From an uncultured bacterium (GTDB lineage: Bacteria; Patescibacteriota; Patescibacteriia; Patescibacteriales; UBA12465): a DNA stretch of 64,000 bases. A program made the position numbers and the translations under genes. The notes under the pieces are model-generated. The model made no database searches. It was not told the origin of the DNA and was given only the letters and a program-made list of their open reading frames with translations. This document shows positions 2,902 through 34,037 of the stretch, one piece after another; position 1 is the first letter of the stretch; each line of letters starts with the position of its first letter. The stretch is taken from assembly GCA_942492765.1 (NCBI GenBank), contig OW818634.1, forward strand, positions 601,159 through 665,158. Direction: 5' to 3'.

Positions 2902-4083
2902 TTAATTTAAATCATAACCGGATTCGCTGTTTTTAGCAATCCCTCGGAGCTCTAATATACTCAGTGTACTATTTATGACCGAGGTGTCAAGTTTGGTTTT
3001 TCTGACGATTTCGTCGGCGCTAATTTTTTCCGCGCGCTCCGAAGCTTCTTTTAATAGCCTATAAACGCTGGCCTCAGCCTCGTTATTAAAGGAGAAAGAC
3101 GGCTGGCGGGTAGTGCGCTTTTTAGCCGTTTCGCTATTAGCGCTGGGATTATTATTAGAGTTTGTATCTAGCCCATAAACTTCTAATATGTCTTCGGGGC
3201 TGGTTATCGTTTTAGCGCCAAGCTTTATCAGCTTATTCGGCCCAGCAGAAAATTCAGAAAATATGTTTCCCGGGACAGCCAGCACCTCCCTATTCTCTTC
3301 TAAAGCATAGCTGGCCGTAATCAAGGCGCCGGATTTTTCTTTTGCCTCGATAACTAAAGTCGCCTGCGCTAAGCCGGCGATGATGCGATTGCGTTGCGGG
3401 AAGTTTTGTTTAAAAGGAGGAGTCCTAGGCGGAAATTCAGAAATTAAAGCGCCGCCGCTATCTATTATCTCCTGCGCGAGCCGGCGGTTGCTAGCGGGGT
3501 AAATACTTTTATAATCCAAGCCCGATCCTAAGACTGCCCAAGTTTTTCCTTTAAGCTCTAAGGCCTTTTGATGCGCTAGAGCATCTATTCCTAAAGCTAA
3601 GCCGCTGATGATATTTATTTTCAACTCAACAATCTCCGGCAATAGCGCGGCAATAGCTTTTTCTCCATAGGCGCTGAATTTTCGCGAACCGACAACGGCC
3701 AAATGATTATCTGTGTCACTATCCAGCCTTCCTTTATAATATAGGACTGGCGGCGGGGATGATATTTCTCTAAGTAGAGCGGGATAACCAGAGTCATTCC
3801 AGATAATGAAAGATATTTCCTCTTTTTCTAATTCAGCAATCATGTTTTTGATAGAAGCGGCTGGAGTTTTTCTCCAGATGACGAAATCTTTTACTAAAGA
3901 CGGCCTTAATCCGGCTCGTTCTAGCTCTACGGCATTCGCAAAAAAGGTTTGGCGCATGTTTGGAAAGAATTTTTCCAGCCTTTTTGTATTTACTGGGCCG
4001 ATTTTTTGGAAATGGTTGAGGGCAAGATAGTAATAGCGGTTTTCGTAATTCATATTTTGTTTAATTTTAGTTAAAATAATCAA
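2902..4083 (-). CDS. dprA: DNA processing/protecting protein DprA (Smf)
   Basis: DprA Rossmann core VVGSRKFSAYG...SGLALGIDALAHQ...GALISEFPP plus a C-terminal winged-helix-like tail. The true start may be the internal MNYENRYYY. Confidence 0.9.
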   Translation of the reverse strand: MIILTKIKQNMNYENRYYYLALNHFQKIGPVNTKRLEKFFPNMRQTFFANAVELERAGLRPSLVKDFVIWRKTPAASIKNMIAELEKEEISFIIWNDSGYPALLREISSPPPVLYYKGRLDSDTDNHLAVVGSRKFSAYGEKAIAALLPEIVELKINIISGLALGIDALAHQKALELKGKTWAVLGSGLDYKSIYPASNRRLAQEIIDSGGALISEFPPRTPPFKQNFPQRNRIIAGLAQATLVIEAKEKSGALITASYALEENREVLAVPGNIFSEFSAGPNKLIKLGAKTITSPEDILEVYGLDTNSNNNPSANSETAKKRTTRQPSFSFNNEAEASVYRLLKEASERAEKISADEIVRKTKLDTSVINSTLSILELRGIAKNSESGYDLN

Positions 4084-4168
4084 TTAGTCTTGACCAATAT
4101 CTAATTATATAGTAAATTTATCTGTTAATAATAACCGCTCTTTAAAACAACAAAAAACTATATAAATC

Positions 4169-4702
4169 ATGAAAGCAAAGCCTAAAGTTATCACCATAGT
4201 CCTTTTCGATGGCCAATCGTTTCCGATTGCAGCCTCCGACGGGAAAAAGATAATTTCCCTGGGAAAGAATATTATCTGGTTCTGTTCTGATTTTACAAGG
4301 TTCGGATTGGATAAGCCTAGTCAGTCAACGAAGAAGGTCGATGTCGTTATCCATGAGATGACGGCCGACGGCACTTTCCTAGAAGTTTTCTCTGGAATCA
4401 ACCCAGATTTGAGCAAGCTCGTCATGACGATGGCTAATATCCTTGATTTCTGTGAGCAGCATCCCAACAAGCTTCACCAAGATGGTTTCGGAACCTTTTT
4501 CTTAACGGAGAAGAAATTGAATATCTTTCAGAAGATATTTCGGCACCTTTTTAACAGGAAGCTGGAATATTTCGTAACTCGCGTGTACGTGCATTCTGTC
4601 GGCTTGTCCGTCTACGTGCATCGTCTTGAGTGCAGCTTCGTCTGGCTTGCCGAGTATCGTCATCGCGTGGTCTCTCTGCGATGTGCACCCTTGAAGGCTT
4701 AG
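4169..4702 (+). CDS. Hypothetical protein (ORFan by eye)
   Basis: 177-aa ORF followed by a strong terminator at 4796-4826. No motif recognised. Confidence 0.4.
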   Translation: MKAKPKVITIVLFDGQSFPIAASDGKKIISLGKNIIWFCSDFTRFGLDKPSQSTKKVDVVIHEMTADGTFLEVFSGINPDLSKLVMTMANILDFCEQHPNKLHQDGFGTFFLTEKKLNIFQKIFRHLFNRKLEYFVTRVYVHSVGLSVYVHRLECSFVWLAEYRHRVVSLRCAPLKA

Positions 4703-4795
4703 CTTTCTTGATATTGTCTCTTTGTCCCTTGGATTCTTTGAATTTAGTCTTAAACTAAACTCAATTGATTCCGAGGGATTTTTATTTTTATAAAT

Positions 4796-4826
4796 AAAAT
4801 CCCCCTAAATTTTTTAGGGGGATTTT
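4796..4826. terminator. Bidirectional intrinsic terminator (serves the 4169 ORF and pth)
   Basis: aaaatccccc-taaatttttta-gggggatttt. Confidence 0.8.
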
Positions 4827-4830
4827 ATGT

Positions 4831-5379
4831 TTATCTTATTTCTTTGATATTGATCTTGGCTGATAATTCTTTAAGCCTCTCTTTTTCTTCGCGGCTTAAA
4901 TTATCCAGGACGAATTTTTCGGGAGGAATATGGGTGCGCAGCAATTCATTCTTGATTCCTAGTCTGAGACGAGTGAACTTTTTAGTCTTGAGATGATCAA
5001 TGATCGATTGGACACCGCGATGGCCGGCGCTGCCGGAATCGGTAGCGACCTTATAAGTTCCGAAGTCTAGATCCAGCTCATCGTGGACAATAGTCAAAAC
5101 ATCGTTTAAGTCAGAATCTTTCTTGCCGATGAGACCGAAATTTTTAGGTAATAGTCCGTAGTAATCCATTATCTTCCTAACGCTGTTTCCGGATTCGTTC
5201 ATGAAAGTCAGTGGCTTTACGAAAAGACAGTCTCCGTCTTCATGGATAAGGGCGCTGAATTTCTTATTCTCCGACCATTTCACGTCGCCAAGCAGGCCGT
5301 CTAAGAAGAGCCAGCCGGCGTTATGGCGCGTGTTCTTATATTGTTCCCCAGGATTGCCTAGGCCGACAATGATTTTCAT
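4831..5379 (-). CDS. pth: Peptidyl-tRNA hydrolase
   Basis: MKIIVGLGNPG..Y..TRHNAGW N-terminus and overall Pth length. Confidence 0.95.
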   Translation of the reverse strand: MKIIVGLGNPGEQYKNTRHNAGWLFLDGLLGDVKWSENKKFSALIHEDGDCLFVKPLTFMNESGNSVRKIMDYYGLLPKNFGLIGKKDSDLNDVLTIVHDELDLDFGTYKVATDSGSAGHRGVQSIIDHLKTKKFTRLRLGIKNELLRTHIPPEKFVLDNLSREEKERLKELSAKINIKEIR

Positions 5380-5382
5380 AAG

Positions 5383-6822
5383 CTATTCTTTAGTAGAACC
5401 GATATCGTCAGACCAGTCTCCTTCCGGCCTGACATTATAAGTAGTATGCGATTTCTTGCTCTTGGTAACATGCAGGCTGATGGGCGTGCCAGTAAAGCCA
5501 TATCTTTCTCGCAGGCGGTTTTCCATGAAGCGGACGTAAGAGAAATGAAGATCATCGTCCGGGCCGATTCTGACGAGAAAATGCGGCGGATTATGATCTT
5601 GCTGGAAGAATTCATAGATGCGCGGAGATTTAGTTCCTTTCCCCTTAGCCGGCTTATGGATCTTAACGACCGACTTCATGAATTTATTGCATTGCGATTC
5701 GCTTAATTCCAATCTTCTCTGAGTAGACACAGTCACGACCAGGTCTAATATCTTATTGACCTTATCGCCGGTCTTAGCGGAAATGAATTGAATAGGCGCC
5801 CAGGTCGCGAAAGGAAACTTATCATAGATAATCTCTGTCCATTTCTTGGGATCATGCTCTTTGATTTTATCCCATTTATTGGCAATAAAGATTAGACTTT
5901 TCCCTCTGTCTTTTATCTCTTGGATAAGCTTGGCATCTTGATGTGTTATCGGTTCGCTGATATCCATGACTAATAGGGCGATATCGGCCCGGTCTAAAGA
6001 TCTTAGGGATTTTTGAACGCCGAGCTTTTCGAAGCCGATGGCATTGCGGCTATGACGGGCGACTCCGGCCGTATCGATCAGATTGATAGCCTGCCCTTTA
6101 TAGATTATCTTGGTGTCTTGAGGTTCGCGGGTAGTATGGGCGACAGGGCTGACGATAACTCGTTCGTAACCGAGAATAGCATTCAGTAGAGATGACTTGC
6201 CGACATTAGGCTTGCCGATGATGCAGGCGCTGATTTTTCCGGTGTCTTCTTCGACAGCCTTCTTATTTTTTCTCGGCTTGTCGATCTTGTCGACGATCAC
6301 GTCGAGGAGATCTCCAGTGCCTAAGCCGCTAGCCGCGGAAATTATATATGGCTCGCCGAGTCCGAGCTGATTGAATTGCGCTGCCTCGGAAGCGTTCTTG
6401 AAATTATCAATCTTATTGGCAACCACCAGCGTTTTCTGGCGATAGCTAGGATTTTTCTTTAATCCGGCCGCCAAGCTCTTGTCTTCCGGAAGCAATCCGA
6501 TCTTGGCGTCGACGACGAATAATATCAAGTCGGCCTGGTCAAGATAGTGGCGGGCCTGTCTTTGCGTCTGGCTGTCGATATCATTCTCTGATATCTTCTT
6601 AGCGCTCAAGGCGCGCGAATCGATTATGCCAGCGGTGTCGACAAGATCGAAAGCGCTCTTCGCCCATTCGACCGTGCCGAGATTGCTGTCTCGAGTCGTT
6701 CCAGCGATATCAGAAACCATCGCTTGTCTTTTTTCGACCAAGCAATTGAAAAGAGTAGATTTGCCGACATTAGTCCGGCCGCAGATGACGACGAGCGGCA
6801 GGACCTTCTTTGGTTTTTCCAT
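5383..6822 (-). CDS. der: Ribosome-associated GTPase Der/EngA
   Basis: Two tandem GTPase domains (GRTNVGKSTLFN and GKPNVGKSSLLN; DTAG twice; NKxD twice) plus a KH-like C-terminus. Confidence 0.95.
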   Translation of the reverse strand: MEKPKKVLPLVVICGRTNVGKSTLFNCLVEKRQAMVSDIAGTTRDSNLGTVEWAKSAFDLVDTAGIIDSRALSAKKISENDIDSQTQRQARHYLDQADLILFVVDAKIGLLPEDKSLAAGLKKNPSYRQKTLVVANKIDNFKNASEAAQFNQLGLGEPYIISAASGLGTGDLLDVIVDKIDKPRKNKKAVEEDTGKISACIIGKPNVGKSSLLNAILGYERVIVSPVAHTTREPQDTKIIYKGQAINLIDTAGVARHSRNAIGFEKLGVQKSLRSLDRADIALLVMDISEPITHQDAKLIQEIKDRGKSLIFIANKWDKIKEHDPKKWTEIIYDKFPFATWAPIQFISAKTGDKVNKILDLVVTVSTQRRLELSESQCNKFMKSVVKIHKPAKGKGTKSPRIYEFFQQDHNPPHFLVRIGPDDDLHFSYVRFMENRLRERYGFTGTPISLHVTKSKKSHTTYNVRPEGDWSDDIGSTKE

Positions 6823-6832
6823 ATAGTTCTTA

Positions 6833-8299
6833 TTATTCGGCTTTATTAGCGTCCGTTCCGATGATCAATAAGAAATCGGGAGTAGAAGTGGCGTTTTGAT
6901 ATTCGCCTGCCCACGCCGGGAAATCGAATGATTGGGCGGCGCCGGTCAAGCTTTTTAGGGCTTTCAATGATTTTTCTTTAACAGTGGTAGTAGCCAAGCT
7001 ATAAACGGTTGTCTTCGCGTAGTCTCTTTCCGGCGAATTCCCGGTTTTAGAAATGATAAATCCAGATTGTTCCAAGATTACAGAGGTCTTTCCGGCTAGG
7101 CCGCTGATCCAAGTTCCGTTTAAGACGACCACTTTAGCCGCATCGCTTATCTTGATTATTTCCTTAGTCGGGTCGGCGATAGATCCTCCGGTCGAGGAAG
7201 CGGCAAAGATATTCTTAACGGCATTTCTTACTTCTGAGAAATTTCCGGAGCGAGGGGTTAGGATATAGGCGCCGCCTTCTCCTAGGCCAGACACTAATAA
7301 TCCATCCGGAGCATCGCTTAAGACTTTATTGATTATCTTGGTGCGATCGACATCCTTGAACATTTCCCAGAGGCGCAATATTTCCCAGGCGTTAAGATTA
7401 GTAGAGACATCCTTACTAAATTCGTTGACTAGCTTGGTAATCATGACCGGGTTCAATAAAGTCTTACTGGAGAGAAGCTTGTCTTTTACCGCCTCAAGCA
7501 CTAATTGCTGGCGCTTGGCGCGGGAAAAATCTGAGCCTTCACCGCCGCCAGCATGGCGGCTGCGGGCATACTTTAGAGCTAAGGAGCCGTTCATAGTTTG
7601 CAGGCCTTTATCAATATGCAGGTGTTCGTAGCGGGAGTAATAATTAGGATTATCCTCTTGGCCGAGAATTGGGTAAGCGTAATCGTCGATCGTATTCTCT
7701 ACGTTGACTTGGATTCCGCCCAGTTCGTCTATTATATTGGAGAAGCCGCTGAAATCTACGCGGATATAATAATCAATTGGCGTCTGTAATAGTTCCGTAA
7801 AAGCTTTTATAGTCACTTCGCCGCCGCTGCCAGGATTATCCTTTTCTGCGTAAGCGTTGATACTGTTAACTTTTTGCCACCCACTGACCGGAGCGACTAG
7901 ATCGCGCGGGATAGAGACGAGCGCAACTTGCTTATCAGAAGGCTGGAGGCTAGCTAGCATGATCGTGTCTGTCAGGTAGGCGCCTTCGTGCCCTTCCCCG
8001 CCCATTCCTAAGAGCAAGATATTAACGCGATCCTCCCCCTCTCCTTTTAACATCTTATCAGAACTGGGCACTAGATGTTTTAACTTGCTTAAAAAGCCAG
8101 TTCCGGAAAACCAATCGGTTCCATTCTGGCTGGATATCAAAATTTTTCCGGAAAAGATCAATCCAACAGCGACAATCGCGATAATATAAGTTACTATCCG
8201 TTTTCTTCTCTTGCTCGGGATGATAATTTCTTCGGAGTCATCTGATAAGCGTCGGGCGCGCTTTTCCTCTTCTTCCATTTTTTGCTTGAAATCAATCAT
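6833..8299 (-). CDS. LytR-CpsA-Psr (LCP) family cell-envelope phosphotransferase with C-terminal LytR_C-like domain
   Basis: N-terminal TM, then the LCP core NILLLGMGG..GAYLTDTIMLASL..VSIPRD. The start codon lies 7 nt after the tRNA-Pro 3' end. Confidence 0.85.
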   Translation of the reverse strand: MIDFKQKMEEEEKRARRLSDDSEEIIIPSKRRKRIVTYIIAIVAVGLIFSGKILISSQNGTDWFSGTGFLSKLKHLVPSSDKMLKGEGEDRVNILLLGMGGEGHEGAYLTDTIMLASLQPSDKQVALVSIPRDLVAPVSGWQKVNSINAYAEKDNPGSGGEVTIKAFTELLQTPIDYYIRVDFSGFSNIIDELGGIQVNVENTIDDYAYPILGQEDNPNYYSRYEHLHIDKGLQTMNGSLALKYARSRHAGGGEGSDFSRAKRQQLVLEAVKDKLLSSKTLLNPVMITKLVNEFSKDVSTNLNAWEILRLWEMFKDVDRTKIINKVLSDAPDGLLVSGLGEGGAYILTPRSGNFSEVRNAVKNIFAASSTGGSIADPTKEIIKISDAAKVVVLNGTWISGLAGKTSVILEQSGFIISKTGNSPERDYAKTTVYSLATTTVKEKSLKALKSLTGAAQSFDFPAWAGEYQNATSTPDFLLIIGTDANKAE

Positions 8300-8306
8300 A
8301 AAATTG

Positions 8307-8377
8307 TCGGGCTGCCGGGAATTGAACCCGGATTACACGCACCCGAAGCGTGCGTAATACCGTTATACCACAGCCCG
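8307..8377 (-). tRNA. tRNA-Pro (anticodon CGG)
   Basis: Cloverleaf read by hand: acceptor CGGGCTG/CAGCCCG, anticodon stem CACGC/GCGTG, loop TTCGGGT, T-loop TTCAATT. No encoded CCA (trailer CAA). Confidence 0.9.
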
Positions 8378-8415
8378 TGATACTGTTAACTTTTATCCGA
8401 TCGGTTTCGGATTTG

Positions 8416-8488
8416 TGGACTTGAGGGGACTCGAACCCCTTACCTCTGCAATGCGAATGCAGCGCTCTACCAGATGAGCTACAAGCCC
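8416..8488 (-). tRNA. tRNA-Ala (anticodon CGC)
   Basis: Acceptor GGGCTTG/CAAGTCC with the G3:U70 Ala identity pair. Anticodon loop TTCGCAT. Trailer CAA. Confidence 0.9.
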
Positions 8489-8501
8489 GCGGTTTTCTAT
8501 G

Positions 8502-8572
8502 TCGGGCTGCCCGGAATCGGACCGGGGCTACATGCACCCCATGCACGCGTACTACCATTATACTACAGCCCG
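8502..8572 (-). tRNA. tRNA-Pro (anticodon GGG)
   Basis: Acceptor CGGGCTG/CAGCCCG, anticodon loop ATGGGGT, T-loop region GGTCCGATTCCGG. Trailer CAT. Confidence 0.85.
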
Positions 8573-10220: not shown

Positions 10221-10245
10221 GTATAATCATGTTGAGATTTCGAGT

Positions 10246-10264
10246 CTAATTAGCATCAATTCAA
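10246..10264 (-). repeat. 3' strand of the pre-16S processing stem (pairs with 11908-11926)
   Basis: ctaattagcatcaattcaa is the exact reverse complement of ttgaattgatgctaattag at 11908-11926. The two copies bracket the 16S gene. Confidence 0.85.
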
Positions 10265-10350: not shown

Positions 10351-11836
<1,486 letters not shown>

Positions 11837-11907: not shown

Positions 11908-11926
11908 TTGAATTGATGCTAATTAG
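11908..11926 (-). repeat. 5' strand of the pre-16S processing stem (pairs with 10246-10264)
   Basis: Perfect 19-nt complement to the 3' flank. This is the classic RNase III-type stem geometry around 16S. Confidence 0.85.
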
Positions 11927-11954
11927 CACCAAAATCTAAACCATCACCATGATT

Positions 11955-15434: not shown

Positions 15435-17387
15435 ATGAATTTTAAAAAAACTTCGCCGGCAAATGATGCCGGCTCGTATGGCGTTCGCGCCAGATCAGGC
15501 CAAGCGCCAGCGCCCCGAGCCCCTTTTAAGGCTAGGCTAGCGGCTCAGCTGCCTCTGCATCGTCCGACTTTCTCGCCTTCTCAGCGGTCCGTTGCCCAAG
15601 CTCAGCCTAGAAATAATTTTCAAGCTCAGCCTAAGGCTAATATTTCCGCTCCAGCCAGGCCGTCTTTTACGCTTCGGCCTAAAGTGGCCGCCCCTATCCA
15701 AATCAGGACGGCGGGCAGCGAATCCAGCTTCAAGATTTATCCGCTCGGCGGTCAAGAAGAAGTCGGCCGTAATTGCACCGTTTTCGAATATGATAACGAT
15801 ATCATTATTCTCGATATGGGCTTGCAGTTCCCCGAGGAAGACATGCCGGGTATCGATTATATTATTCCTAATGTCTCCTGCTTGCAGGGGAAGGAGAAGA
15901 ATATTCGCGGCGTAATCTTCAGTCATGGCCATCTCGATCATATCGGCGCAGCCCCTATCCTTCTGGAGCAATTAGGTAATCCGCCTATCGTCGGCATGAA
16001 ATTGACGCTCGCTATGATTAAGCATCGTCAGGAAGATTATAAGCGCGGCACGACCAAGAATTTGAAGACGATCTTGATAAACTCTGTTAATCAGAAATTA
16101 TCTTTAGGAAAATTTCAGATCAGCTTCTTCCAGGTTGAACATTCGGTCATTGATGCCGTCGGCGTCATTATCAGCACTCCCCATGGCACGGTTATTCATC
16201 CTGGCGATTGGACTATGGAAAGCGATCCGATGGAAGGACCAGTCGTCGGTTATACGCACTTGGCGCAATTGCCGTCTCCGAGAATCTTGATGCTGGAAAG
16301 CCTTGGCGTTTCATACCCGGCCGAAAGAGTGCCGGTCAAAGTGACGCTCAATAATCTAGAGAAGCTCATCAACGAGGCGAAGGGGCGCGTTATTATCGGC
16401 ACCTTCTCTTCCCAGCTGGAACGCATCACGCAACTCTTGGCCTATGCCGAGAAGATAGGCAAGAAAGTCGCGCTCGATGGCTATAGCATGAAAATGAACG
16501 TGCGCATCTCGCAGGAACTCGGCTATATTCCGGCTCATAAGAATACTCTTATCCCAGTAGAAGATATCAGCAAGTATCCTGATAACAGGATCGTGGTTAT
16601 CTGTACGGGCGCCCAAGGAGAGTCAAATGCCGTCTTTTCCCGCATCGTGAACGGCAACCACCGTTATCTGTCCATTCAGAAATCAGATGTAGTAGTATTT
16701 TCTTCATCGGTAATTCCTGGAAACGAGCGGTCTGTCCAAAGAGTTAAGGATCAGGTATATCGCCTGAGCGATAATGTCATCCATAGCAGCATCATGGATA
16801 TCCATTCCGGCGGGCATGCTAATGCCGAAGATATTAAGAATATCTTGAAGCAGATCAGGCCAGATTATTTCCTTCCGGTTTACGCCAATCATTACATGTT
16901 GGTCGAAGCTAAGAAATTAGCTTTGCGCGAAGGTTTTCATGAAGACCAGATATCTGTTTTAGACAACGGCAGCGTTATCAAATTCCAAAGAGGGCGCAAG
17001 CCGCTTGTCCTTAAAGAAAAGATGAATACTGATTATGTCATGGTCGATGGTCTCGGCGTCGGCGACGTTTCTGAGATCGTTCTCCGCGACCGCCGCATGA
17101 TGGCTGATGATGGCATGATTGTCGTCATCGCGACTATCGACGCTAAGACCGGGGCGATTATCGGTAATCCCGACCTGATTTCTCGCGGCTTTGTCCATAT
17201 GAAGGAGAACCGTGACCTGATTGAGAAGACTAGGGCGAAAGTTAAGAAGATAGTCAAAGATAAGAACCCGATGACTGCGGCTGATGATGATTATATTAAG
17301 AATAAGATTAGGAACGAAATCGGCCAATTCTTATTTATTACCACCAAGCGCCGCCCCATGGTCCTGCCTGTGATCATCAAGGTTTAA
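15435..17387 (+). CDS. rnj: Ribonuclease J with an N-terminal P/A/Q/R-rich extension of about 100 aa
   Basis: Metallo-beta-lactamase/beta-CASP core: KIYPLGGQEEVGRNC, HGHLDHIG, and a GDW-type motif. The canonical N-terminus begins near residue 100. Confidence 0.9.
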   Translation: MNFKKTSPANDAGSYGVRARSGQAPAPRAPFKARLAAQLPLHRPTFSPSQRSVAQAQPRNNFQAQPKANISAPARPSFTLRPKVAAPIQIRTAGSESSFKIYPLGGQEEVGRNCTVFEYDNDIIILDMGLQFPEEDMPGIDYIIPNVSCLQGKEKNIRGVIFSHGHLDHIGAAPILLEQLGNPPIVGMKLTLAMIKHRQEDYKRGTTKNLKTILINSVNQKLSLGKFQISFFQVEHSVIDAVGVIISTPHGTVIHPGDWTMESDPMEGPVVGYTHLAQLPSPRILMLESLGVSYPAERVPVKVTLNNLEKLINEAKGRVIIGTFSSQLERITQLLAYAEKIGKKVALDGYSMKMNVRISQELGYIPAHKNTLIPVEDISKYPDNRIVVICTGAQGESNAVFSRIVNGNHRYLSIQKSDVVVFSSSVIPGNERSVQRVKDQVYRLSDNVIHSSIMDIHSGGHANAEDIKNILKQIRPDYFLPVYANHYMLVEAKKLALREGFHEDQISVLDNGSVIKFQRGRKPLVLKEKMNTDYVMVDGLGVGDVSEIVLRDRRMMADDGMIVVIATIDAKTGAIIGNPDLISRGFVHMKENRDLIEKTRAKVKKIVKDKNPMTAADDDYIKNKIRNEIGQFLFITTKRRPMVLPVIIKV

Positions 17388-17410
17388 TTATAATTAGCTA
17401 ATATTAAATA

Positions 17411-17441
17411 AAAAAGCCCAAGAATATACTTGGGCTTTTTT
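17411..17441 (+). terminator. Intrinsic terminator after rnj
   Basis: aaaaagcccaag-aatatac-ttgggcttttt. Confidence 0.85.
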
Positions 17442-17465
17442 GTGGTTAAAGTGTGGATAAAAGTA

Positions 17466-17494
17466 TTGACAGCGCCTTTGTTATATGATATAGT
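17466..17494 (+). promoter_or_regulatory. Near-consensus sigma70-type promoter (TTGACA-17 nt-TATAGT) driving the candidate small RNA
   Basis: -35 ttgaca at 17466-17471 and -10 tatagt at 17489-17494, with exactly 17 nt between them. Confidence 0.65.
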
Positions 17495-17499
17495 AATAA

Positions 17500-17650
17500 G
17501 TCGCTTAAAAAGACAATATTTAGAAAAGACCGCTTTAAACGGGTCAGGCACGACAAGCATGGGGATTTTCTTGTTAGGATTTTTCCGGCTTTACGCTCGA
17601 AAGTGCCTAAAAGAAATTTTCTTGCCTACCCGTTTAAGTCGGTCTTTTTT
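17500..17650 (+). ncRNA. Candidate structured small RNA of unknown class (about 150 nt)
   Basis: It has its own promoter. AAAAGACCGCUUUAAACGGGU pairs with ACCCGUUUAAGUCGGUCUUUU (19 of 21 bp) and encloses about 85 nt that contain AGGCAC/GUGCCU and other sub-helices. The element ends in a U-run. The overlapping 77-aa ORF has no RBS and a low-complexity composition. Confidence 0.5.
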
Positions 17651-17651
17651 A

Positions 17652-18389
17652 TTACTCGAATAACCGGTCCTTCCCTACTATTATATTGACTCGATCGCGC
17701 AAGATGCCGATCTCAGCTGGAGTACTTATCTCAACGGCGCTATCGACAATCAATTTTTCATCTGGATTGGAAATTTTGAAACTGGTGGCGTTAAGATAGG
17801 TCCGGTCCTTCTTCTTGGTATCGATGACTATGTCGAGCAAGCCGTCATGCGGGTTTGATCTGATGTCCTCATTTTTATCTTTTAAGAGATTGATTATCTT
17901 GATTTCTCCTTTCTCCATCGTCTCTATGGAGTAATCCCCTATCTCTATCGTCGTTCCCATGCTCTGGATAGAAGCTTCATTAAGGAAATAGTGGCTGCCG
18001 GCTAGGCCGAGGTCTATCTTTTCGACGCGCCGCGCTAATAGTATATTGCAAGCATCCTCAGGATTCTTAATGCCGAAAGATGTGGCGATGGTATTATCTT
18101 CGCCTATCGGGATTATTCCCAGGAGAGTTTTTTTCTGAAAATCTCCGTAGACATCGTCATCAATGATGGCTCCGATTATCCGATTGACCGTTTGGTTATT
18201 GCCGACGGCGACTATCGTTTTCGCGCCCATCCTGATTTCGTTTTGGATCGCTGCCTTGATATTCTTTATCCCTGCCAGCCTTAGTATCTTTCCGTTCAAA
18301 CCTAAATCAGTCAGCCGGATTTCCATCCGGTTGATTATCCTATTATATTTGCTTTTATTGAGATAATCGTCGTAAACGTAAACATGCAT
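17652..18389 (-). CDS. Diacylglycerol/lipid kinase catalytic-domain family protein (YegS-like, divergent)
   Basis: The N-terminal pattern resembles the DAGK_cat fold: an IVAVGNNQT segment where GGDGT normally sits, then IPIGEDN. Short (245 aa) and divergent. Confidence 0.4.
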   Translation of the reverse strand: MHVYVYDDYLNKSKYNRIINRMEIRLTDLGLNGKILRLAGIKNIKAAIQNEIRMGAKTIVAVGNNQTVNRIIGAIIDDDVYGDFQKKTLLGIIPIGEDNTIATSFGIKNPEDACNILLARRVEKIDLGLAGSHYFLNEASIQSMGTTIEIGDYSIETMEKGEIKIINLLKDKNEDIRSNPHDGLLDIVIDTKKKDRTYLNATSFKISNPDEKLIVDSAVEISTPAEIGILRDRVNIIVGKDRLFE

Positions 18390-19039: not shown

Positions 19040-19093
19040 CATTTTTTATTTAATGTTAGCTAAATAATTAATAAAATTAAGGTATTTTTCTTT

Positions 19094-19117
19094 AGAATGT
19101 TCCTTGAGGAACATTCT
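19094..19117. repeat. Perfect 24-nt palindrome agaatgttcc-ttga-ggaacattct (family copy 1)
   Basis: Read directly. With its flank (19088-19115) it is the 28-nt inverted repeat of 19955-19982. Confidence 0.95.
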
Positions 19118-19187: not shown

Positions 19188-19784
19188 ATGGAAAACTTAG
19201 CATTGTTTGTATTGTTATTTGATCCAGAAGACTTTAAAAGTCTTTTGAGGAATTGCCACCCTGCTGATCTTTTAGACAATCCGCAGCGCTTCAAACTTAT
19301 TGTAGAAACAAGAAGAGGCGTTAGAAAAATTTATTTTCAAGATATCTATCGCATCTCAGAAGAGAGAGGCAAGGTGAGTGTCCACTATCGAATTAGAAAT
19401 AAGGATACCGGAAAAGCAAGTTATTATCAGATTAAGGATATCGATCAAGTTTTCTTGAAATTTTTTTTCTTACCATTCCTAGAACATGAGATTTTTTGCA
19501 AGAAAGTCGCTATGATTGTCGGAATAATTTGTCTAGGATTGAAAGATTCGGAAAATAGGCTAGGAAAAGCTTTCGAATCTTTTAAATATTTTGATAGTTT
19601 GAAGACCGAATGTGTAAAAAAACAGGATTTTGAGGAGGCCGTGAAATATAGAGAAAAATCGATCATTGCCGTTGACCCAATCAGGGAGTATATAAAAGAA
19701 AGGCTGGGGCATGGTTATGATGAGGTTATGGATTATGTTCTTAAAAATCATGGCGAGCTCATGAAAATATCAGAAGTAGCTTAG
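19188..19784 (+). CDS. Hypothetical protein (AT-rich ORFan bracketed by the palindrome family)
   Basis: 198 aa. The N-terminal half (KLIVETRRGVRKIYFQDIYRISEERGKVSVHY) faintly resembles a LytTR-type DNA-binding pattern. The C-terminal part has a UVR-like KKQDFEEAVKYREK. Both resemblances are weak. Confidence 0.45.
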   Translation: MENLALFVLLFDPEDFKSLLRNCHPADLLDNPQRFKLIVETRRGVRKIYFQDIYRISEERGKVSVHYRIRNKDTGKASYYQIKDIDQVFLKFFFLPFLEHEIFCKKVAMIVGIICLGLKDSENRLGKAFESFKYFDSLKTECVKKQDFEEAVKYREKSIIAVDPIREYIKERLGHGYDEVMDYVLKNHGELMKISEVA

Positions 19785-19924: not shown

Positions 19925-19946
19925 AATTGTTCCTTGAGGAACAATT
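19925..19946. repeat. Perfect 22-nt palindrome aattgttcc-ttga-ggaacaatt (family copy 2)
   Basis: Read directly. Confidence 0.95.
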
Positions 19947-19954
19947 TTAGGAAA

Positions 19955-19974
19955 AATGTTCCTCAAGGAACATT
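19955..19974. repeat. Perfect 20-nt palindrome aatgttcc-tcaa-ggaacatt (family copy 3)
   Basis: Read directly. 19955-19982 is the reverse complement of 19088-19115. Confidence 0.95.
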
Positions 19975-19992: not shown

Positions 19993-20012
19993 ATTGTTCC
20001 TTAAGGAACAAT
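19993..20012. repeat. Perfect 20-nt palindrome attgttcc-ttaa-ggaacaat (family copy 4)
   Basis: Read directly. It ends 6 nt before tRNA-Ala. Confidence 0.95.
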
Positions 20013-20092: not shown

Positions 20093-20463
20093 CAATAAAG
20101 ATCTGTATTAACAGGTCTTTTTATTTTGCAAAATAATGGCAGCATAAGTAATTACCAGGATCCGTCGTCAGAAATAAGTCTAAAATTAAAATAAAAGTTT
20201 AAAAGTGCCTAATATAAAATTCAATAACAGGGAATAGGGATAAGTCTACATAAATCTAGACTTTTAGATATAATTTTGCTAATATTAAATAAATAATAAT
20301 ACATAAAAAATGTGTATAAGTTGTTGGAATCTTTATTTTTTGGCTAAAATTATTAATTTTATAGTAAATTTTTTTATCTTTTCTCTTGATTAATTCTTAT
20401 TTGCACAAAAACTATAAAAACCATATAATTAAGATATAATTTTTATTTTTATAGCCTAAATTT

Positions 20464-32376: not shown

Positions 32377-32790
32377 TTAGACAGCTGGCGGCATACTTCC
32401 TCCACCGCTGAAAGGCAGCCATCTGAAGATGAAATAGGTAATTGAGTAGGCTGCTAGCACAATGACTAGGCCGATAATTGCCGTCTTGATTGACCCCTGG
32501 GCTTTCTTGACTGCTTCTTCATTGCCACCTGACGTCATCCAGCGGAATCCGCCTATTATCGTCAGGATTAAGAAGATTATTCCTAAGAAACCGAGAACGA
32601 TTCTGATGATTTTGGATATTAAGACTCCGATATCAACTTGTCCGAAATTAGCTTGTTGGGCGGTAATAGCAGTGATACTGTCTAGACTGCCTTCGCCGGT
32701 GGCATTAGTTATGAGCTGGGCGGAAGCAACTTTGAGGAATAAAAGAGGTGCGATTATCAGGACTAGCGAGGTGATGATTATTTTTTTCAT
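32377..32790 (-). CDS. TrbC/VirB2-like (T4SS-pilin-like) small membrane protein, array member 6 of 6
   Basis: Start set at MKKIIITS (ATG 32790, 2 nt after the upstream stop). Signal peptide ..VASA, variable region, TM1, loop GGFRWMTSGGNEEAVKKAQ, TM2 IIGLVIVLAAYSI. Confidence 0.75.
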   Translation of the reverse strand: MKKIIITSLVLIIAPLLFLKVASAQLITNATGEGSLDSITAITAQQANFGQVDIGVLISKIIRIVLGFLGIIFLILTIIGGFRWMTSGGNEEAVKKAQGSIKTAIIGLVIVLAAYSITYFIFRWLPFSGGGSMPPAV

Positions 32791-32792
32791 AT

Positions 32793-33215
32793 TTAGTTGC
32801 CTAATAATATAAATCTTTGGAAGATGAAGCCCCAAAGGCTATAAGCGGAAATAGCGACAATCAGGCCGATGATAGCTTGTTTGATAGTGCTCTTGGCTTT
32901 CTTGATATCTTCTTCGTTGCCGTTAGCTGTCATCCATCTATAGCCCGCGATGATGATCAGGATCAAGAAGGTTATGCCTAGGAATCCGACGAAAGCGCCG
33001 ATAACCGTGCCGATTATCTTCGGAGTCGAGGCGATGCTAGCATCGGTCTGATAGCCGCCTTCTCCCGCCACGGTCGTAAGCCTATCCATTAGTTTAGATG
33101 GTCCGGCTGGCGGCGGAGGAGGAGTAGAGTCGTCTTGAGCCAGGGCTAAGCCAGGCAGGATAGCAAAGAGACCCAGGGCCAGGAAGTAAATGATTGATTT
33201 GATTTCTTTTTTCAT
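32793..33215 (-). CDS. TrbC/VirB2-like small membrane protein, array member 5
   Basis: Signal peptide ..LALA, PPPPPP-containing variable region, loop AGYRWMTANGNEEDIKKAK, TM2 IIGLIVAISAYSL. Confidence 0.75.
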   Translation of the reverse strand: MKKEIKSIIYFLALGLFAILPGLALAQDDSTPPPPPAGPSKLMDRLTTVAGEGGYQTDASIASTPKIIGTVIGAFVGFLGITFLILIIIAGYRWMTANGNEEDIKKAKSTIKQAIIGLIVAISAYSLWGFIFQRFILLGN

Positions 33216-33224
33216 ATCGCTTGG

Positions 33225-33617
33225 TTATTTCGTTATGAGAGTTCTTGTTAATAGAGTGCTGAATCCAGAGCTCAAAGCGTAAGCCATTAGGATTAGGACT
33301 AATCCGATCATCAGGTTTCTGATGGTTGTCTTAGCTTTTTTGACTTTTTCTTCGTTTCCGGCGGCTTGCATCCAGTCGCTGCCGGCCAAGAAAGTCAAAA
33401 CTATGAAGATAGTCCCTATGAATGAGAGGATTATGCGGATGATAGTGCTTATCCGATTTTCTAAAGTAGTCTCGGTGTCATATTCAGTTGCCGCTGCCGT
33501 AGCCTTGATGTTGTTGGCGTATTCTTGCTGCTTATCAGAATTCAACAGGGCAGCCTGGACTGGGAAAGCCGATAAGATGAGAAATGAAAATAGGAAGATT
33601 ATTCCGGCCTTTTTCAT
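33225..33617 (-). CDS. TrbC/VirB2-like small membrane protein, array member 4
   Basis: Signal peptide ..PVQA, loop AGSDWMQAAGNEEKVKKAK, TM2 MIGLVLILMAYAL. Confidence 0.75.
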   Translation of the reverse strand: MKKAGIIFLFSFLILSAFPVQAALLNSDKQQEYANNIKATAAATEYDTETTLENRISTIIRIILSFIGTIFIVLTFLAGSDWMQAAGNEEKVKKAKTTIRNLMIGLVLILMAYALSSGFSTLLTRTLITK

Positions 33618-33620
33618 AAA

Positions 33621-34037
33621 TTATTGCCAAAAATAATTGATTAAGAAATAGCTCAAGGCATAGGCCGAAAGAGTGATCACTAGCCCGACGATGGCGCTCA
33701 TGATCAAGCCTTCAGCTTTCTTGACCTTTTCCTCGTTGCCGCGCGCCGTCATCCAGGTAAAGCCTCCATAGATGACTAATCCGAAGAAAAGTATGCCGAT
33801 GAAGCTCAGTAGGGTATAGATGACGCGGCTGATTACGCCTTCTAGAGTAGTCGCGCTCGTTCCCGTATCATAGCCAGCGACATTGGCGGCCGCTCCTAGG
33901 CCGCTCTGTTCCTTGAAATTATAAGTTCCTCCGATTCTGTCAGTCGTAGTCGCTGCCGACGCTGGCAATAGGAAGCATAAAGATAAGCAGATAGTCAGCG
34001 AAGCTAAAATCAGTTTTTTAGAAATAAGCTTTTTCAT
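33621..34037 (-). CDS. TrbC/VirB2-like small membrane protein, array member 3
   Basis: Signal peptide ..PASA, T/G/S-rich variable region, loop GGFTWMTARGNEEKVKKAE, TM2 IVGLVITLSAYAL. Its start overlaps the upstream stop (TAATG). Confidence 0.75.
   Translation of the reverse strand: MKKLISKKLILASLTICLSLCFLLPASAATTTDRIGGTYNFKEQSGLGAAANVAGYDTGTSATTLEGVISRVIYTLLSFIGILFFGLVIYGGFTWMTARGNEEKVKKAEGLIMSAIVGLVITLSAYALSYFLINYFWQ

Follow-up and report, generated by a model that had tools for sequence, protein, structure and literature searches.

What is encoded between rnj, the gene of RNase J, and the gene that converges on it in an uncultured member of the Patescibacteria? We address this question for one element, located at 17466-17651 on the + strand of a 64-kb window, by which we mean the whole stretch of 64,000 nucleotides that was analysed (contig OW818634.1, positions 601,159 to 665,158). 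The Patescibacteria, or candidate phyla radiation (CPR), represent a large share of bacterial diversity, and they have tiny genomes with little spare non-coding DNA. The element is almost certainly a real gene and the gene of a new RNA family. That our explanation holds in its entirety, namely that this is an independently transcribed non-coding RNA gene whose product of about 150 nt acts in trans as a ribonucleoprotein (RNP), we consider slightly more probable than its contrary. A previous inspection of the letters without any database search, hereafter the sequence-only reading, had proposed a stand-alone promoter-to-terminator unit encoding a structured RNA of about 150 nt, and the promoter, the rod and the U-run are all found where it had placed them.

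The transcription unit

The unit begins with a sigma-70-type promoter (17466-17494, +) that is composed of a -35 box TTGACA (17466-17471), a 17-nt spacer and a -10 box TATAGT (17489-17494). It had been described as near-consensus, and indeed 11 of the 12 hexamer positions agree with the consensus; a TG at 17486-17487 extends the -10 box. From its distance to the -10 box, the transcription start is predicted at G17500, which opens a variable 5' leader (17500-17523, +). The GT at the predicted +1 is conserved, the length and sequence of the leader vary among relatives, and in most of them the leader forms a small 5'-terminal hairpin. A long irregular hairpin then spans 17524-17648, giving a rod of about 135 nt within an RNA of about 150 nt. 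Its ends form the helix of 21 positions that had been noticed from the letters: the arms AAAAGACCGCTTTAAACGGGT (17524-17544) and their partner (17628-17648) are complementary with 2 mismatches. A complementary pair of this kind is absent from 100 shuffles, and there is no third copy of the arm in the 64-kb window. Finally, a U-run (UUUUUU then A, 17645-17651, +) follows this outermost helix, P1, and partly belongs to it. It is kept in all rnj-linked relatives and is the presumed site of intrinsic termination, which from the sequence would occur at 17645-17650. As had been reported, these six positions adjoin the stop codon (17652-17654) of the convergent gene. P1 and the U-run probably end the transcript of the unit itself and perhaps also the convergent one.

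Upstream of the unit, rnj (15435-17387, +) encodes an RNase J with beta-CASP and C-terminal domains, according to the list of open reading frames (ORFs) and Pfam. It is followed by its own intrinsic terminator (17410-17441, +), which the sequence-only reading had rightly placed ahead of the promoter and which consists of a 13-bp G+C-containing stem and then a T-run; this terminator parts the rnj transcript from the RNA gene. Downstream, the convergent ORF of the DAGK_cat family (dagk, 17652-18389, -, 245 aa) is followed by a bactofilin gene. The order at the locus is thus rnj, rnj terminator, promoter, long hairpin, U-run, convergent dagk and bactofilin gene.

Conservation downstream of rnj

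The organism stands close to 'Candidatus Falkowbacteria', and relatives of its RNase J at 71-91% identity are encoded in metagenome-assembled genomes of such Patescibacteria. The element lies directly downstream of rnj in 18 of 80 rnj loci (L001-L018; nhmmer E = 1e-24 to 1e-42), one of the 18 copies being cut by a contig end. Because these loci were found via the RNase J protein, their RNA sequences are an unbiased sample. The linkage to rnj is confined to one clade, since no copy was found near rnj with the covariance models R1 and R2 in 62 more distant CPR genomes (L019-L080).

At the rnj-linked loci, the -35 and -10 hexamers (and the TG) are conserved in 19/19 cases and the spacer is variable. 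The core of the element is 91% identical column by column in the rnj-linked alignment, and a stretch that we will describe as the bulge, CGACAAGCAU, is identical in all copies together with its surroundings. Mean identity to the window is 93% for the core, 75% for the last 600 nt of rnj, 67% for the last 600 nt of dagk and about 70% for the spacer and leader. The interior of the element is also more conserved than its stem. The sequence-only reading had been prepared to abandon its RNA gene if the region varied while its flanks were conserved, and the reverse is observed, the element being more conserved than the flanks.

A rod with a one-sided bulge

For the + strand of 17500-17655, the predicted fold is a single long rod with a free energy of -59.5 kcal/mol (z = -8.0 in comparison with dinucleotide shuffles), and RNAalifold applied to the 18 rnj-linked sequences gives an unbranched rod as consensus fold. 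The 5' strand of P1 (17524-17544, +) contributes to P1a, in which 17524-17532 pairs with 17640-17648, and to P1b, in which 17534-17543 pairs with 17629-17638; the helix ends with the pair U17544-A17628, after which C17545 is bulged. Compensatory changes in P1 turn GC to AU and CG to UA in close relatives, and they are also seen family-wide (helices 1-2). P2 follows, with AGGCA (17546-17550, +) pairing with UGCCU (17623-17627), which is the aggc/gcct extension of the end helix seen previously. Its three outer pairs are variable (AU/GC for one, GC/CG/UG for another and GC/UA/GU/CG/AU for the third), and its inner pairs, C17549-G17624 and A17550-U17623, are invariant in 72/72 members each of the family set described below. 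A competition between two helices, in which AGGCAC would pair with GUGCCU instead, had also been suggested. The alternative partner is present in the window copy, but it is not conserved, the GUGCC site reading GUCCC, AUGCC or CUACC in other members. Covariation backs only the UGCCU pairing: in L003, a G-to-A change in AGGCA is compensated (C to U) only at the 3' UGCCU.

Next to P2 lies the 10-nt bulge CGACAAGCAU (17551-17560, +), which faces 0-1 nt on the opposite strand and is the presumed functional site. It is followed by P3, where GGGGA (17561-17565, +) pairs with UUUCU (17618-17622) through G.U, G-C, G.U, G.U and A-U pairs. Changes in P3 are mainly one-sided and mostly preserve pairing, with G.U to A-U in 12/72 and 28/72 members; the last pair is AU or GC with 8 cells unpaired, and the G-C pair is kept in 69/72. 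The G.U wobbles are conserved in that they remain G.U or turn A-U, rarely G-C, and these G.U pairs are possible on the + strand only. P4 (UUUCUU/AAGAAA, 17567-17572 with 17611-17616, +) and P5 (UUAGG/CCUAA, 17574-17578 with 17606-17610, +) are separated by the bulged G17573. In these two helices, UA changes to CG in 8/18 close relatives, L008 has both CG to UA and UA to GC, and the distant members have another sequence with pairing retained. A 2x2 internal loop leads from P5 to the apical hairpin (17581-17603, +), in which UUUUCCGGC (17581-17589) pairs with GCUCGAAAG (17595-17603) with one C.C mismatch around the loop UUUAC; in most distant members the hairpin is capped by a UNCG-type tetraloop. 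Its 3' strand GCUCGAA is conserved in sequence, and this helix (helix 4) is 91.5% paired. The 3' strands of P5, P4, P3, P2 and P1 complete the rod at 17604-17648 (+), reading UG, CCUAA AAGAAA U UUUCU UGCCU A CCCGUUUAA G CGGUCUUUU. In total, 8 pairs show compensatory changes among the 18 close relatives.

The wider family

A scan of metagenomes with the pattern CACGACAAGCATNGG, a gap of 20-50 nt and GCTCGAA returned at least 120 loci, 8 of which were rejected as false positives in G+C-rich coding DNA (L082, L091, L098, L112, L131, L145, L166 and L194), so that more than 100 further copies remain. To judge from these sequences, the family occurs in Patescibacteria and in CPR-like metagenome contigs, several of which, at 0.47-0.98 Mb, are as large as entire CPR genomes. 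Three groups can be told apart. The first, of the window type, has the order solute-binding protein gene, rnj, RNA and then convergent dagk and bactofilin genes. The second comprises single rods with another P1/P2 (e.g., GCGCUCA/UGAGCGC), which typically follow clpP and face a vanW-family gene and hsp20 in convergent orientation. The third consists of a transcript unit of about 430 nt with one promoter, one terminator and two homologous rods (L107, L118, L124, L137, L138, L151, L154, L157, L162, L167, L169, L175, L185, L186, L190 and L197; e.g., L151:5790-6240), downstream of nfo and a YfcE-like phosphoesterase gene, with lgt on the other side. In this two-rod RNA, rod A contains CUGCAGGCACGACAAGCAUAGGAA and rod B contains CUAGGCACGACAAGCAUGGGAA, and a helix encloses rod B together with a conserved linker, UUGUCACCUUCCAUU...UUUGAGAAAAUU. 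The enclosing helix covaries (CUGCGGACC/GGUCCGCAG, CUGUAGGUC/GACCUACAG, CUGUAGAUCC/GGAUCUACAG and CUGCAAACCGG/CCGGUUUGCAG), and the part GUCACCUUCC of the linker resembles the anti-Shine-Dalgarno end of 16S rRNA.

In most of the distant members inspected, a promoter of the form TTGACA-17-TGnTAnnnT is found 55-95 nt upstream of the motif and the predicted transcript starts with GU(C/U). The flanking genes differ by lineage (rnj/dagk, clpP/vanW-hsp20 or nfo-yfcE/lgt), and the downstream gene is usually convergent.

Covariation and the invariant core

We assembled a family set of 72 sequences that are less than 90% identical to one another but remain mutually related, and we considered two alignments of it: A3, made by plain MAFFT, and A4, fitted with the covariance model R2 that was built from A3. 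In A3, 76.6% of the cells fall in standard pairs against 66.1% in column shuffles (0/500 reach the observed value), and in A4, which is biased towards the modelled structure, 88.9% do so against 68.1%. The covariation score is 0.316 against 0.180 for shuffles in A3 and 0.556 against 0.197 in A4, and the cells with double changes number 386 (shuffles 194) and 649 (shuffles 216), respectively. For paired cells, double-change cells and covariation score, 0/500 shuffles reach the observed values. Pairs with double changes are 37/48 in A3 (34.5 in shuffles, 53/500 of which reach it) and 38/47 in A4. When partners are slid by one column, 56-65% of the cells are paired in A3, where the +1 slide scores 0.337, and 54-57% in A4. 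The count of double-change pairs and the +1 slide thus do not distinguish the proposed structure in A3, because MAFFT misaligns P1 in distant members. The 72 individual minimum-free-energy folds leave the 10-nt bulge wholly unpaired in 67/72 cases and keep the order of the helices although P1, P4 and P5 share no sequence between groups. The structure is secure because A3 (in its paired and double-change cells), A4 and the single-sequence folds agree. Covariation had been named beforehand as a check on the RNA, and the compensatory changes do support the fold beyond shuffles.

Fixed in the collected set are the two pairs that close P2, the bulge, the G-C pair of P3 (69/72) and, in the apical hairpin, the three innermost pairs. 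The relatives found through RNase J and the rod A copies all have the same 12-mer, CACGACAAGCAU, while the surrounding helices have diverged completely. The rod A copies were found with the covariance model and did not have to match the pattern themselves, and they have CACGACAAGCAU exactly and GCUCGAA relaxed to GCUUGGA, GCUCGGA or ACUGGAA. The invariance of CACGACAAGCAU is therefore independently supported, since it is held in the 18 rnj-linked copies and in the rod A copies.

A small-protein gene or a mobile inverted-repeat element (miniature inverted-repeat transposable element, MITE) is a further explanation, for which we see next to no chance. The window copy does contain an ATG...TAA frame of 34 codons that starts from the AUG in the bulge. 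However, this frame ranges from 4 to more than 65 codons in relatives, its start is AUA in 12/72, indels disrupt it already between close relatives, and a ribosome-binding site is lacking. The 21-nt inverted repeat at the ends of the element would suit a MITE, but the element is present as a single copy in the 64 kb, at one locus per contig and always at the syntenic place; the family covariance model likewise found no second copy in the window. A phage origin was also considered and dropped, the sole match in the viral collection being a false positive inside a gene.

Three observations on individual family members can be added. In L175, bactofilin and DAGK-like homologues (4227-5448; 35-39% identity to those of the window) lie about 1.5 kb downstream of the two-rod RNA on the same strand, a remnant of synteny shared between very divergent lineages. 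L109 carries a partial decayed second copy (2766-2907, -) at 1.27 kb from an intact one (4039-4180); it retains CACGACAAGCATGGGGATTTTCTTG, but neither the apical hairpin nor the 3' strands are left, and it is therefore probably a pseudogene derived from a duplication. Insertions are known in CPR rRNA genes, and in L097 the 23S rRNA gene beside the family member (5016-8504) exceeds the model length, with 3489 nt against about 2925 nt, and therefore carries insertions. A match to GACAAGC...GCTCGAAA in L041 was discarded as a chance occurrence inside a coding region.

More than a terminator between convergent genes

Is the element nothing but a long bidirectional terminator, or an insulator, that separates two convergent genes? 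This was the null explanation of the sequence-only reading. P1 and its U-rich tracts on both strands do sit exactly between the ends of rnj and dagk, and the - strand of 17500-17655 folds well too (-49.2 kcal/mol, z = -5.0). P1 with the U-run moreover has the form of a Rho-independent terminator. However, what would be the loop of such a terminator is a conserved structured insert of about 85 nt with its own promoter. In addition, rnj has a terminator of its own upstream, the promoter is conserved before the element, and the interior is more conserved than both the stem and the flanking genes. The covariance scores are strongly asymmetric between the strands, with 136.6 bits on the + strand of the window copy and 25.2 bits on the - strand for the family model. 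Lastly, the element is found in unrelated gene contexts and as the two-rod RNA of about 430 nt. The conserved promoter, strand asymmetry, conserved interior and varied contexts contradict the null, and we hold it to be highly improbable that termination is all there is to the element.

Absence from known RNA families

When the complete window is searched at the gathering score, Rfam 15 places no family on the element, and a search of 17380-17700 at E<=10 finds there no 6S, signal recognition particle (SRP), RNase P, transfer-messenger RNA (tmRNA), riboswitch or self-cleaving ribozyme family. The E<=10 matches are only terminator look-alikes (MicC, Thr_leader and others), and they lie on the rnj terminator. 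Rfam was equally silent on the element in 13 distant loci, and it gave nothing on the two-rod RNA at E<=5. For the individual models, the two for 6S RNA (RF00013 and RF01685, 6S-Flavo) have no match at the gathering score, at E<=10 for the locus or at E<=5 for the two-rod relative, the two for SRP RNA (RF00169 and RF01854) have none at E<=10, and ARAGORN detects no tmRNA. Full-text literature searches, motif string included, found no published description. We class the RNA as a new family among the rod-shaped, stand-alone small RNAs of bacteria, distinguished by a conserved core of its own and by an unusual form in which the rod is duplicated. The possibility of a new family had been raised from the letters and is upheld by the Rfam searches on the window, the locus, the 13 distant loci and the two-rod RNA.

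Could the RNA instead be a divergent member of one of the known housekeeping classes, namely SRP (4.5S) RNA, RNase P RNA and tmRNA? Like SRP RNA (4.5S, RF00169), the new RNA is a rod of housekeeping type that measures about 100-150 nt and has a conserved asymmetric loop; in SRP RNA, this loop is the binding site of the protein Ffh. Its window copy also has GGUCAGG and AAGCA, and GGUCAGG ... AAGCA recalls GGUCAGGUCCGGAAGGAAGCAGCC, the sequence of SRP helix 8 in 4.5S RNA. The sequence-only reading had noted this likeness of the heptamer and had found that it breaks down right after it. The likeness is indeed not conserved: GGUCAGG...AAGCA is confined to the clade of the window, relatives having GCGCUCA, CUGCAGG or GCGUCCA in place of GGUCAGG, with CAGG replaced by GCUC, GUCC or CAUC. 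Furthermore, the conserved site of the new RNA lies mid-rod, whereas that of SRP RNA lies at a GNRA-capped tip. A symmetric CAGG/AGCA loop is absent, as is a GNRA-capped hairpin between CAGG and AGCA, the opposite strand is without a loop, and the apex is variable or of the UNCG type. As for the other two classes, the RNase P RNAs of CPR are known as divergent (PMC8172020), but even these are still detected by RF00010 at lowered thresholds (PMC8172020). The new RNA has no SRP, RNase P or tmRNA match at E<=10 or E<=5, and ARAGORN is negative. At 135-150 nt it is much too short for RNase P RNA or tmRNA, which have 300 nt or more; the two-rod form has about 430 nt, and neither form contains the universal P4 or T-arm motifs. 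That these three RNAs could be set aside, as had been argued from the letters, is thus confirmed, and we find it barely credible that the element is a divergent version of one of them. Other likenesses were dropped as too short, namely the AGC triad of U6/group II, GACUAAGCAUG of tmRNA, the G.U/G-C motif of S15 and an RNase P CR-I-like GAGAAAAUU in the linker.

Close parallels in circumstance are orphan RNAs such as raiA, OLE and those of the ROOL/GOLLD type. They share with the new RNA covariation and highly conserved loop nucleotides, the lack of an obvious cis target, and the status of a presumed RNP or complex-folded RNA whose function was unknown at discovery. The new RNA differs from them in that it has no sequence or model similarity to them (Rfam 15), is simpler, being an unbranched rod or two rods and one helix, and is found so far in Patescibacteria-like genomes.

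How the RNA may work

We propose that a strong constitutive sigma-70 promoter starts the transcript at about G17500 and that P1 and the U-run would end it, with P1 clamping both RNA ends in a helix. Because the 5' hairpin and P1 would clamp both ends, the RNA is likely to be abundant and stable, and because no neighbour gene is shared across lineages it is likely to act in trans. The product would then be a stable, abundant, trans-acting RNA working as an RNP. The bulge CGACAAGCAU, its fixed closing pairs (C-G and A-U) and the G.U/G-C helix would make up the recognition site for a conserved protein, and the remainder of the rod would serve as a scaffold whose sequence can vary while pairing holds. 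In the two-rod transcripts of about 430 nt there would be two of these sites. The use of the bulge that we favour is specific macromolecular recognition, for which a platform that binds a protein is the simplest form, because an invariant unpaired stretch, fixed closing pairs, conserved wobbles and, about two helical turns from the bulge, a second conserved strand, GCUCGAA, are set among freely covarying scaffold helices; its probability falls a little short of even. It is possible, though on balance improbable, that the molecule is the RNA subunit of an RNP, or a self-acting RNA, without counterpart among known bacterial RNPs, i.e., an extra CPR-specific 'housekeeping' RNA with the CGACAAGCAU bulge and the G.U helix as its active or recognition centre. 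This centre would be duplicated in the two-rod forms, whose anti-Shine-Dalgarno-like linker could tie the RNA to ribosome biogenesis or translation control.

Several points weigh against this account of a trans-acting RNP. We infer the transcription, ends, abundance and stability of the RNA from its sequence, and trans action and a protein partner are likewise deduced. The conserved single-stranded bulge could equally well serve as a seed for base pairing, hold a ligand or form a catalytic core. No neighbour gene is common to all lineages and none co-occurs with the RNA in a way that would point to its partner. The scan pattern required the 12-mer plus GG and GCTCGAA, so that variants would have escaped; the invariance of the family at the 12-mer and at GCTCGAA is partly imposed because the pattern demanded both, and A4 leans towards its model as said above. 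P1 enclosing an insert of about 85 nt is an unusual form of terminator, and in several relatives a second, conventional terminator lies closely downstream of the element.

The first of the other functions to be weighed is that of a compact 6S-like RNA, as the sequence-only reading had put forward. The rod would mimic open promoter DNA and sequester the RNA polymerase holoenzyme, with the bulge and the weak G.U/A-U helices P3/P4 as the 'bubble', and the bulge might template a product RNA, e.g., AUGCUUGUCGUG. Several features are shared with 6S RNA (ssrS, RF00013): both are stand-alone and strongly promoted, each is one long irregular hairpin with a closing and a terminal stem (in the new RNA an irregularity recurs every 5-10 bp), and no associated protein gene adjoins either of them. 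Both also have an unpaired region on the 5' strand, conserved here, and the 5' strand is the template side in 6S RNA. P3/P4 consist nearly only of G.U and A-U pairs, with wobbles kept rather than replaced by G-C, and the helices that flank the bulge, which are about 24 bp and about 23 bp long, could fit a mimicry of downstream and upstream DNA. However, the 6S models have no match even at E<=10, and a one-sided bulge of 10 nt, with only 0-1 unpaired nt on the opposite strand, differs from the large two-sided bubble of 6S RNAs. The helix that adjoins the bulge is kept paired: P3 and P4 are true helices, with pairing-preserving changes in P3 and compensatory ones in P4. The rod of about 135 nt is below the typical 6S size, and relatives have two rods per transcript, for which we know of no 6S precedent. 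Lastly, 6S RNAs conserve structure rather than sequence, whereas the core of the new RNA is conserved in sequence and not in shape alone, with 12 nt invariant over deep divergence. We therefore think a 6S-like function unlikely.

The bulge could also be the seed of a base-pairing riboregulator, whose targets would be mRNA start regions (AUGCUUGUCG) or the 5' strand of helix 34 of 16S rRNA. It is the sole universally conserved single-stranded stretch, and its 10 nt are a typical seed length. ACGACAA and CAUG can pair with UGCAUGGUUGUCGU of the 16S rRNA of the window (7 + 4 bp, -16 to -20 kcal/mol), and the conserved two-rod linker GUCACCUUCC adds its likeness to the anti-Shine-Dalgarno end. The complementarity to 16S rRNA is, however, reached by 16-26% of shuffled motifs, and 23S and 5S rRNA offer no complementarity beyond shuffles. 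The window shows no enrichment of sites complementary to the bulge (7, the gene itself included, against 4.0 +/- 2.1 expected). A duplex of 10 bp would have a poor geometry in a bulge that is held between coaxial helices, and the helix nucleotides that adjoin the bulge are also fixed, which a seed would not require. Taken together, this makes a riboregulator decidedly unlikely.

A ligand-sensing or catalytic RNA, in which the bulge and the G.U-lined helix would form a pocket or an active site, has to be considered as well. Extreme conservation is confined to the internal loop and its flanking pairs, and the other helices covary freely, which is the usual signature of aptamers and ribozymes. 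The tandem two-domain version would suggest cooperativity as in tandem riboswitch aptamers. On the other hand, there is no expression platform, the outermost helix being the terminator and the downstream gene usually convergent; Rfam 15 gives no riboswitch or self-cleaving ribozyme match, and the gene neighbourhoods suggest no metabolite. The chances of this function appear slim.

Whatever its mechanism, the RNA very likely does something important, because it is kept in tiny genomes, has a strong promoter and has a core better conserved than the neighbouring essential genes. The non-coding RNAs of CPR, a major bacterial radiation, have hardly been explored, and in the searchable literature we found no description of lineage-wide structured RNAs in CPR beyond rRNA, tRNA, RNase P, tmRNA and SRP. 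With a defined fold, an unchanging motif of 12 nt and natural one-rod and two-rod versions, the family is a testable candidate. If it is a 6S analogue, it would show how far the 6S design can shrink; otherwise it represents a new class of RNP or functional RNA, in organisms not yet genetically tractable. In terms of annotation, thousands of metagenome-assembled genomes have a 'hypothetical intergenic' blind spot here that a covariance model would clear.

Other features of the window

Some features of the window around the RNA gene are recorded here. The motif TTAGCTAATATTAAAT occurs 11 times (<=3 mismatches) against 1.7 expected, at 17394-17409, directly after the rnj stop codon, at 19048-19063, at 20275-20290 and at 8 weaker sites. 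Similar GCTAAAATTAGC hairpins with a T-run are found upstream of the promoters of two-rod RNAs in other contigs, and TTAGCTAATATTAAAT may be an A+T-rich terminator or another intergenic signal. There are also 4 perfect 16-nt palindromes TGTTCCTYRAGGAACA (19098-19113, 19928-19943, 19957-19972 and 19995-20010), with 6 matches at <=2 mismatches against 0.1 expected in the window. These palindromes, which by their sequence look like operator sites of a regulator, flank two tRNA genes and an ORF of 198 aa (19188-19784) that has a UvrB/C motif. The 16S rRNA gene (10353-11834, -) stands alone, with no 23S or 5S gene within the 64-kb window, and is flanked by a 34-nt inverted repeat (10231-10264 / 11908-11941), which is probably a processing stem; unlinked rRNA genes have been reported to be common in CPR (PMC8172020). 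Finally, three direct copies of a 127-nt unit are present at 32468-33808 (62-100% identity, spacings of 395 and 819 nt), and they may be repeated domains within a gene.

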